64,000 nt of DNA from Alphaproteobacteria bacterium. GTDB taxonomy: Bacteria; Pseudomonadota; Alphaproteobacteria; RF32; CAG-239. Location: positions 9,228 to 73,227 of the forward strand of contig JAFUBQ010000021.1 in assembly GCA_017460085.1 (NCBI GenBank), read 5' to 3'. Shown here piece after piece: positions 59,742 through 60,377 of this stretch (the first letter of the stretch is position 1; every line of letters begins with the position of its first letter). The notes under the pieces are model-generated. The model saw only the letters and a list, made by a program, of their open reading frames with translations. It was not told the origin of the DNA and did not search any database. The position numbers were made by a program, and so were the translations under genes.

Positions 59742-59776
59742 TATTTATCCTTTTTTTGTTTTTTTGAAAAAAATAC

Positions 59777-59807
59777 TTGACTTTTGTCTATCGGGGGGGG
59801 GTAAATA
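59777..59807 (+). promoter_or_regulatory. Promoter with G9 homopolymer in the spacer, upstream of the antisense moron
   Basis: TTGACT (59777-59782), a 19-nt spacer TTTGTCTATC+GGGGGGGGG (G9 at 59793-59801), then TAAATA (59802-59807). Confidence 0.5.
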
Positions 59808-59837
59808 AAAGATTAAGAATTAAATTATTAAAATATA

Positions 59838-60377
59838 ATGCTTATGAATTATTTACAGTACATTGAGACAAAACAAGTAAACAAATTGTTTGATGAAGTC
59901 TTTGATAAGCAACTCCTTGAAAAAGGAACGTCTGCTTATGCCAAGGATTTGACGGAAGATGAGCAAATTGCGCTTATTCGCAAGATGCTGACATTAGATG
60001 CAGTAGAAGTTGATAACTGGGTAGTTTTTCTGAAGTTATACAATCAGCATCATCCTATTGCAGAAAAGGCAGCTGATGAGCTTTGTGACAATCTTGGAAA
60101 TAACATAGCATTTTCATTGATTGTCGATATCTTCAGTGTTCAAGGATATACTGAAAGACAAGGTATCAAACTTTGTCGGTATATTTTGGAGAGCCAAGAG
60201 GAAAGCAAGGTTATTGCACTTCTTCAAGTTTTATGCGATTATGGTAAAGAATTTTCTCTTGAGATATATAATTATCTCGTGCGAATAGACATCCACATCT
60301 GCGAACTTGGGTACCCTGAACAGGCAGTGTTAGCTAATTCTTATCAAACATCTATGTTGCATACTTTGGCAGAATAA
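59838..60377 (+). CDS. Prophage moron: hypothetical all-alpha protein (179 aa) on the strand opposite the structural genes
   Basis: AT-rich ORF embedded between head-tail genes, with its own promoter and a downstream hairpin (GCTCTT...AAGAGC plus T-run about 60385-60425). No family recognised. Confidence 0.5.
   Translation: MLMNYLQYIETKQVNKLFDEVFDKQLLEKGTSAYAKDLTEDEQIALIRKMLTLDAVEVDNWVVFLKLYNQHHPIAEKAADELCDNLGNNIAFSLIVDIFSVQGYTERQGIKLCRYILESQEESKVIALLQVLCDYGKEFSLEIYNYLVRIDIHICELGYPEQAVLANSYQTSMLHTLAE

Follow-up and report, generated by a model that had tools for sequence, protein, structure and literature searches.

A length-variable poly-G tract in the predicted promoter of an antisense prophage moron from an uncultured gut alphaproteobacterium

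Results

We analysed a stretch of 64,000 nucleotides from an uncultured gut alphaproteobacterium (assembly GCA_017460085.1, contig JAFUBQ010000021.1, positions 9,228 to 73,227; hereafter the window, whose own numbering is used throughout). It carries a prophage in which a small accessory gene, or moron, lies antisense to the late structural genes, and this gene is preceded by a predicted promoter with an uninterrupted run of nine guanines between its two hexamers. The features of the promoter and gene are as follows.

59767-59773, + strand: A7 tract just 5' of the -35 hexamer, the end of a T7-G-T7-G-A7 run, as read from the sequence
59777-59782, + strand: TTGACT -35 hexamer (5/6 consensus matches)
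59793-59801, + strand: run of nine guanines (G9), a simple sequence repeat prone to slippage, which fills the spacer's 3' half
59802-59807, + strand: putative -10 hexamer TAAATA (3/6 matches, no T at -7), 19 bp from the -35 hexamer at G9
59808-59843, + strand: A/U-rich leader with neither a Shine-Dalgarno (SD) sequence nor predicted structure
59838-60377, + strand: longest open reading frame (ORF) of the moron, 179 aa, starting 30 nt past the -10 hexamer
59844-60377, + strand: moron gene with the preferred start at the second ATG, 177 aa, an acidic, all-alpha protein
60393-60436, + strand: intrinsic terminator, a 15-bp-class hairpin (60393-60427) followed by CUUUUAUUU
59742-60440, + strand: the whole moron cassette, 699 bp, between the Phage_attach and DUF6441 genes, delimited by comparison with insert-free relatives and by GC content

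The spacer consists of TTTGTCTATC followed by G9, 19 nt in all, and the + strand from 59770 to 59810 reads aaaataCTTGACTtttgtctatcGGGGGGGGGTAAATAaaag. Together the hexamers and tract form a unit that lies 30-36 nt upstream of the moron ORF, depending on the start codon. A preliminary description made from the letters alone had noted TTGACT, a 19-nt spacer with G9, TAAATA and a 179-aa ORF 30 nt downstream, and both coordinates and sequence are as it gave them. The 179-aa frame is indeed the longest available, but translation most likely starts at 59844 to give 177 aa, since the N-terminus aligns with the protein family at MNYLQ and database gene calls agree. The A7 tract occupies the position at which the proximal UP-element subsite sits in sigma-70 promoters, and may have that role here. 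The T7-G-T7-G-A7 run to which it belongs (59751-59773) extends between the DUF6441 start and the moron -35 hexamer, and on the opposite strand its T runs form the spacer that follows the SD sequence of DUF6441.

The length of the G tract differs between genomes that are otherwise almost the same. Seven assemblies were compared, the window and six others encoding an identical protein, all of them assembly consensuses rather than reads and 99.5-100 % identical apart from the tract.

G9: window, L004 and L006, with identical flanks
G10: L005, with a private single-nucleotide polymorphism (SNP) in the spacer
G11: L001, L002 and L003, with identical flanks

L004 is 100 % identical to the window, and across 8375 bp L001 differs from it by five substitutions and one insertion-deletion (indel), the sole indel being the G tract. 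Variation in tract length, the observation that the preliminary description had proposed as the check on its idea of slippage, is therefore found at the level of assembly consensus, with G9, G10 and G11 in near-identical copies, and length polymorphism among near-identical genomes is also what characterises a contingency promoter. Several contigs end at or near the tract: L007, which carries a homologue 88 % identical, begins 6 nt after it, L006 begins 26 nt before it and L009 likewise ends at or near it. These breaks fit assembly trouble at a tract that is heterogeneous or hard to read. Within the -35 region, the first 20 nt of L006 also contain four mismatches, whether from errors at the contig end or from true variation.

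That the tract lies in a promoter is indicated by homology. The nearest member of the protein family outside the phage lineage, P0003 (59 % identical), is encoded on a short non-phage contig (L048), 3' of a terminator. Its promoter reads TTGACTTTTGTCTAT-GGGGAGGG-TAAAAT, with a 17-bp spacer (N17), and the window counterpart, TTGACTTTTGTCTATC-GGGGGGGGG-TAAATA, in which GGGGGGGGG is the G9 tract, aligns with it base for base, the poly-G of the window being matched to the interrupted run GGGGAGGG of L048. With 5/6 matches in its -10 hexamer TAAAAT, the L048 promoter satisfies the standard promoter rule at N17. Distant family members have TTGACA-N17 promoters 35-45 nt before an SD-less ATG and lack the G tract. 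Judged by this alignment, TTGACT and TAAATA have their homologues in the hexamers of a canonical promoter, an interrupted G-rich segment of the spacer has been purified and expanded into the poly-G, and the ancestral spacing corresponds to G7 in the window arrangement. The homopolymer accordingly falls between -35 and -10, as in the contingency promoters of the porA/opc type. An exact search of IMG/VR for the moron promoter gave 0 matches.

The cassette lies between two genes of the late operon, which together with their neighbours are listed below. All the flanking phage genes are on the - strand, whereas the moron ORF is on the + strand.

57794-58735, - strand: tail tube, late gene
58748-59176, - strand: tail terminator, late gene
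59169-59741, - strand: DUF6441 / phrog_6367 (Pfam E = 4e-31, PHROG E = 2e-48), late gene
60431-60730, - strand: Phage_attach, head-tail attachment (Pfam E = 4.7e-14), whose last codons (ICVK and stop) enter the former junction
60910-61938, - strand: major capsid protein E, late gene

The insert begins at the nucleotide that follows the DUF6441 start codon (CAT, 59739-59741) and leaves a relic CAT on its far side, at 60441-60443. When GTDB genomes were scanned on the basis of DUF6441, 28 related loci came up, most of them in metagenome-assembled genomes (MAGs) of ruminant or human gut that bear the label Alphaproteobacteria or proteobacterium, with a few distant ones from other habitats. Both flanking genes were seen in 22 of these loci, and in 17 of the 22 attach and DUF6441 abut or overlap (they abut in L008, L010, L013-L016, L018, L020 and others), and they are also without insert in the human-faecal phage contig MT836000. 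In the insert-free L010, L013, L014, L016 and L018 the two genes abut at a junction where GCAT is followed directly by AAGTCGCAACTCC. The cassette has a GC content of about 36 % against 42-49 % in its flanks, and the moron ORF (36 %) differs from the nearby phage genes (42-49 %) to the same extent. Some MAGs with this phage family (L017, L018 and L024) are labelled Bacteroidaceae or [Ruminococcus] gnavus, unlike most of the closer relatives, which is probably binning contamination and not broad host range.

Other cargo occupies the same junction in relatives of the prophage.

L011 4400-5010, L012 2146-2756 and L017 4397-5010, antisense to late genes: cassettes of a ribbon-helix-helix (RHH) antitoxin and a ParE/RelE-like toxin
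L019 1610-1900 and L021 4720-5010: 270-bp non-coding inserts at the attach/DUF6441 junction

The toxin-antitoxin cassettes share with the moron both the exact nucleotide of insertion and the antisense orientation. Their promoters are of the form (A/C)CTTGAC(A/T)-N17, the RHH/ParE cassette promoter being CTTGACA-N17-TATATT with a palindromic operator and a strong SD sequence. Each junction cassette is bounded by repeated CAT, and the attach/DUF6441 junction is a cassette hotspot. Inserts of approximately 160-860 bp are also found at the DUF6441/tail-terminator junction in L012, L013, L026, L030 and L032, which suggests a second moron site there.

At its 3' end the cassette has a predicted terminator hairpin of -15.9 kcal/mol (z = -5.3; 0/200 shuffles fold equally well) with a U-rich tail. 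It is conserved in L007, and the opposite strand can also form a hairpin (-14.9 kcal/mol). The cassette is thus extra DNA between genes that are adjacent in related phages, equipped with its own predicted terminator and, by homology to L048, its own predicted promoter. Its absence from most related prophages agrees with the preliminary description, which had called the gene an antisense moron with its own promoter.

The leader lacks the SD motif that is present in 22/27 genes of the window, and its minimum free energy (-1.6 kcal/mol) is not better than that of shuffled sequences. All 37 nt before the start codon (59807-59843) are identical in L007 (37/37), while the coding DNA is 90 % identical. 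SD-less, A/T-rich leaders behind N17 promoters are also found in the four family members examined, and the arrangement fits SD-independent initiation on an A/U-rich leader. The moron ORF is intact in every assembly. Against the 88 % homologue the ratio of non-synonymous to synonymous substitution rates (dN/dS) is 0.25 (dS 0.275; 27.5 non-synonymous changes over 424.5 sites and 24.5 synonymous changes over 106.5 sites), so that the protein is clearly constrained by purifying selection, more loosely than the neighbouring attach (0.11) and capsid (0.07) genes. The 88 % homologue differs from the protein at 21 amino acids, 11 of them within residues 113-133 (window 60180-60242), a stretch that spans two adjacent helices and may be a fast-evolving interaction surface.

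The preliminary description saw no recognisable family in the moron protein. This stands for the profile collections, as Pfam, PHROGs and PADLOC gave no significant match, but exhaustive searching with HMMER places it in a real family of 36 cluster representatives (E <=0.001), of which all except two measure 157-189 aa. A word-indexed search returned only the moron protein itself and one 88 % homologue, and missed P0003-P0034 even though these were in the query alignment; to call the protein an orphan on the strength of the indexed search alone would have misled. No direct relatives of the protein were found in GTDB species genomes or in IMG/VR, and a scan of JGI metagenomes gave only the 88 % homologue already found. 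Among toxin-antitoxin and defence profiles the window protein had no PADLOC hit, family hits were scattered, confined to single members and at E >=0.0019, and Pfam was empty.

AlphaFold2 run with the family alignment predicts a small alpha-solenoid of ten helices with confidence (predicted local distance difference test score, pLDDT, 93.2; predicted template modelling score, pTM, 0.85). Foldseek searches of this model gave no match better than E = 0.1 in PDB or BFVD. The best PDB folds were generic HEAT, ARM, TPR and designed repeat proteins (E >=0.12, template modelling score <=0.53). We considered and rejected kinship with transcription activator-like (TAL) effectors: the profile match to 3ugm_A has E = 3e-11, yet single repeats score -2.7 to 5.8 bits with individual E >=100, the total is inflated by summing at least 13 near-identical repeat copies, and Foldseek finds no TAL effector in PDB for the model.

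The family is chromosomal wherever the context is clear, the contigs of P0003 and P0005 being too short to classify. Its neighbourhoods are unrelated to one another (smpB/bactofilin; LemA/TerB-like; downstream of a dCache-HAMP-SpoIIE sensor, in the same MAG as the sister prophage L011), and with contexts that differ in this way operon partners allow no inference of function. The moron thus has the look of a host gene that a phage captured and that has since diverged. In our view its product probably is an alpha-solenoid that binds other proteins, either mimicking its host paralogues or competing with them.

Two runs of at least eight G or C occur in the window against 0.47 expected, an unremarkable count. 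Their placement is another matter. Only two such runs reach even seven nucleotides in the 64 kb, C8 at 39581-39588 and G9 at 59793-59801, and each lies 6-7 nt downstream of one of only two CTTGACTTT sites, both strands counted; this cannot be put down to chance. The C8 run belongs, on the - strand, to the promoter of a giant gene outside the moron cassette.

39572-39603, - strand: tpsA promoter, TTGACT-TTTAGTGCC-G8-TAGTAT(AAT), 17-bp spacer
22738-39462, - strand: tpsA, giant TpsA-like ORF, 5574 aa
39698-41455, + strand: tpsB

The tpsA promoter reads CTTGACTTTTAGTGCC-G8-TAGTATAAT on the - strand, and TTGACT-N17-TAGTAT satisfies the promoter rule. As the preliminary description pointed out, its layout matches that of the moron promoter: CTTGACTTTT, 6-7 nt, a block of guanines (Gn) and TA are common to both. 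The likeness extends to the ancestral moron promoter, with TTGACTTTT, 6 nt, an 8-nt G block and TA. In 433 kb of compared sequence there is no further promoter with the TTGACTTTT-G-block layout, and we found no explanation for the shared G block of the two promoters.

The same prophage contains a second antisense moron, which serves as an example of an unperturbed moron promoter in the same phage.

53805-54464, + strand: second antisense moron, between the tape-measure gene and the distal tail genes
53805-53833, + strand: its promoter, TTGACT-N17-TAGTAT
53864-54148, + strand: PhdYeFM antitoxin, 94 aa
54135-54464, + strand: ParE toxin, 109 aa

The -10 hexamer of this toxin-antitoxin moron, at 53828, is TAGTAT, the same as that of tpsA. 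Beside it, from 49160 to 53792 on the - strand, lie six successive tail-region ORFs (159-342 aa) without a Pfam match, and the GC content of the tail region falls to 35 % at about 49-50 kb.

Discussion

We propose that the site is a contingency-type, phase-variable promoter of the sigma-70 type, which keeps a constrained but dispensable, lysogen-expressed moron mostly silent while giving rise to rare ON variants; in our judgement the chances of this being correct are about even. According to the model, a cassette comprising promoter, SD-less 177-aa gene and terminator would have been copied from an otherwise chromosomal gut-bacterial family and have landed in antisense orientation in a lambda-like prophage, precisely where the attach and DUF6441 genes meet. 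In the phage copy the interrupted run GGGGAGGG of the 17-bp spacer would have become an uninterrupted G tract, which could slip at replication and so produce length variants. Each extra G would set the -10 hexamer one base farther from the -35 hexamer and rotate it, and tract length would therefore set promoter strength, with G7-G8 (17-18 bp spacing) corresponding to an ON state and G9-G11 (19-21 bp) to a low or OFF state. What tract length does to transcription, whether the change reverses, whether ON cells arise and what the protein does are matters of inference, whereas the tract, its place in a homologous promoter, its length polymorphism, the insertion and purifying selection on the ORF are shown. 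A more specific proposal, which we put forward tentatively and regard as possible rather than probable, is that the temperate phage bet-hedges a lysogenic-conversion gene, the diverged copy of a host alpha-solenoid, which would be ON in rare lysogens through contraction of the tract to G7-G8.

A number of observations weigh against a phase-variable promoter. Sigma-70 promoters tolerate spacings of 16-18 bp well, but all seven alleles give spacers of 19-21 bp, 2-4 bp over the 17 bp of the homologue, and an allele of ON length (G7-G8), with spacing inside that range, was present in 0/7 assemblies, a small sample made up of consensuses only. The sample may amount to 4-5 independent observations from one ruminant project, as L002 and L003 look like one sample assembled twice, and assembly consensuses are uninformative on switching within a population and on reversibility. 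The -10 hexamer TAAATA has only 3/6 matches and has lost the T at -7 that TAAAAT retains in L048. A promoter scanner makes no call at TTGACT/TAAATA, and the standard promoter rule fails the site at every simulated tract length, optimal spacing included; a relaxed rule accepts these hexamers at G6-G8. In addition, the tpsA tract is G8 without exception in five assemblies (the window and L044-L047, the latter four from the same run and sample series). We had considered it as a second variable locus and on these grounds rejected it, and the earlier suggestion that two slippage promoters reveal a strategy of the organism or the phage comes down to one variable locus. The reading given in the preliminary description is upheld in part: the identity of the promoter, supported by homology, the moron and the tract polymorphism stand, while every allele in hand, at 19-21 bp, would be at best in an OFF or low state.

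The same facts suit a non-adaptive account, in which the captured promoter had a G-rich spacer by chance, slippage expanded the G run once it was pure and, together with a damaged -10 hexamer, silenced the moron, so that the length variation is noise at a dead promoter. All seven alleles exceed the ancestral spacing by 2-4 bp, the -10 hexamer has degraded from TAAAAT to TAAATA with the promoter rule failing at every length, and the cassette is dispensable, being absent from most relatives. Against a dead gene stand an ORF that is intact everywhere, its dN/dS of 0.25 and a leader identical in L007, although such constraint could predate silencing. Leader and terminator are both conserved in the 88 % lineage, and purification of an interrupted run by A-to-G changes is typical of selected contingency loci. 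We consider decay doubtful for these reasons while giving it real weight, and the present alleles are such that a contingency promoter in its OFF or low state and a promoter crippled by slippage cannot be told apart. A different and, to our mind, unlikely possibility is that other hexamers are used and that G9-G11 is their working range. At G9-G11 the relaxed rule accepts, in place of TTGACT/TAAATA, the weaker TTGTCT-N16-18-TAAAAG (59784-59789 and 59806-59811), whose spacing is 16, 17 and 18 bp at exactly G9, G10 and G11; alternatively, a perfect TATAAT at 59834-59839 might be used with the tract upstream of it. However, TAAAAG too is without a T at -7, TTGTCT has only 4/6 matches and the homologous L048 promoter uses TTGACT/TAAAAT, whereas TATAAT overlaps the first ATG, has no usable -35 hexamer at 15-18 bp and would start transcripts inside or after the start codon at 59844. 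A leaderless mRNA from this TATAAT was considered and rejected, as only 4 nt separate it from the ATG at 59844 and the -35 is unusable. MerR-type activation of a 19-bp spacer was dismissed as well, the spacer not being palindromic.

It could also be argued that the length differences are sequencing or assembly artefacts and that the true tract has a single length. Both Illumina reads and k-mer assemblers tend to err where nine or more G follow one another, contigs break at or near the tract and all the data are consensus assemblies. Yet the ENA and Logan pipelines both give G11 for what are apparently the same contig ends (L002, L003), G9 recurs in the NCBI MAG, L004 and L006, the G8 control tract is identical in five assemblies, and the G10 of L005 goes with a private spacer SNP that marks a distinct haplotype; we judge an artefact very unlikely. 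Least credible of all, and in our view highly improbable, is a role on the - strand, where the late transcript would contain the tract as a run of C 52 nt upstream of DUF6441 and where it would modulate the tail genes or read-through instead of the moron. Transcription of the late operon has to cross the cassette, and the run of C lies in that untranslated stretch, but no - strand promoter brackets it (the sole call, TTCAAA-N17-AATAAT, overlaps the start codon, and manual inspection adds none) and Rfam gives no match. The tract is moreover part of the inserted cassette and homologous to a + strand promoter, and the insert-free relatives do without it.

Homopolymers in promoter spacers are known to tune transcription of Neisseria meningitidis porA (poly-G) and opc (poly-C), and related arrangements are found in Bordetella fim2, fim3 and fimX, with a C-stretch in the promoter, and in Haemophilus hifA/B, with TA repeats (PMC5084427 with references 18, 24 and 32 therein; PMC1891110). 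The phase-variable promoter that we propose resembles porA and opc in having the homopolymer between the -35 and -10 hexamers, in being length-polymorphic in close genomes and in that each unit changes the spacing. Unlike them, it precedes a temperate-phage moron instead of a gene for a surface antigen, it belongs to an uncultured gut alphaproteobacterium, its product is a predicted alpha-solenoid that looks cytoplasmic, and all lengths are on the long, predicted-OFF side. In Neisseria a few predicted simple-repeat loci lie within prophage-related genes (PMC5084427). Contingency loci of phages have been described inside coding sequences, namely the poly-G receptor-binding genes of Fletchervirus, a Campylobacter phage, and homopolymers in T2/T4 (PMC12633550, citing Sorensen et al. 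2021 Cell Rep 35:109214). The moron tract is, like these, a hypermutable simple repeat on a phage genome that generates heterogeneity, but those phages are lytic and their repeats mostly coding and acting by frameshift, whereas here the repeat is in the promoter spacer of a lysogen-type accessory gene of a temperate phage. Phase variation of prophage conversion genes is known from the P22-type gtr operons, where it is epigenetic and depends on Dam and OxyR (PMC7380047). In both cases a prophage accessory function would be confined to a fraction of lysogens, a prediction in the case of the moron; gtr variation is methylation-dependent and modifies the O-antigen, in contrast to the repeat slippage proposed here.

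As a moron the cassette is of a familiar kind in other respects. In the sense of Hendrix and Juhala, morons of lambdoid phages are reportedly extra genes with their own promoter and terminator between conserved late genes. The cassette shares with them its absence from the junction of relatives, its predicted promoter and terminator and its lower GC content, and toxin-antitoxin cargo is exchanged at the same nucleotide. It is unlike them in being antisense to the late operon and in the slippage tract of its promoter, and its expression from the prophage is putative. In a limited search of the literature we came across no promoter-spacer homopolymer described for the moron of a temperate phage. 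The mechanism is thus already known and it is the carrier, a prophage moron, and the lineage that appear to be new, and its working as a switch is a proposal.

Several consequences follow for how such loci are regarded. Contig breaks and length disagreements at tracts of this type in metagenome assemblies contain biological signal that is usually discarded. The work also flags a small, wholly uncharacterised family of proteins whose predicted fold is confident; several gut MAGs encode it on the chromosome, and a phage appears to have captured a member. If the switch works, morons would be expressed stochastically rather than constitutively in lysogens, and bet-hedging by slippage, known from mucosal pathogens and from coding sequences in lytic phages, would extend to the accessory genes that temperate phages carry in gut commensals. 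Should the more specific bet-hedging proposal be true, it would provide a pre-adapted minority of lysogens, for example resistant to another phage or altered in the pathway of the host paralogue, and the moron promoter would be the first described promoter-type simple-sequence switch on a prophage moron, in an uncultured gut alphaproteobacterial lineage.

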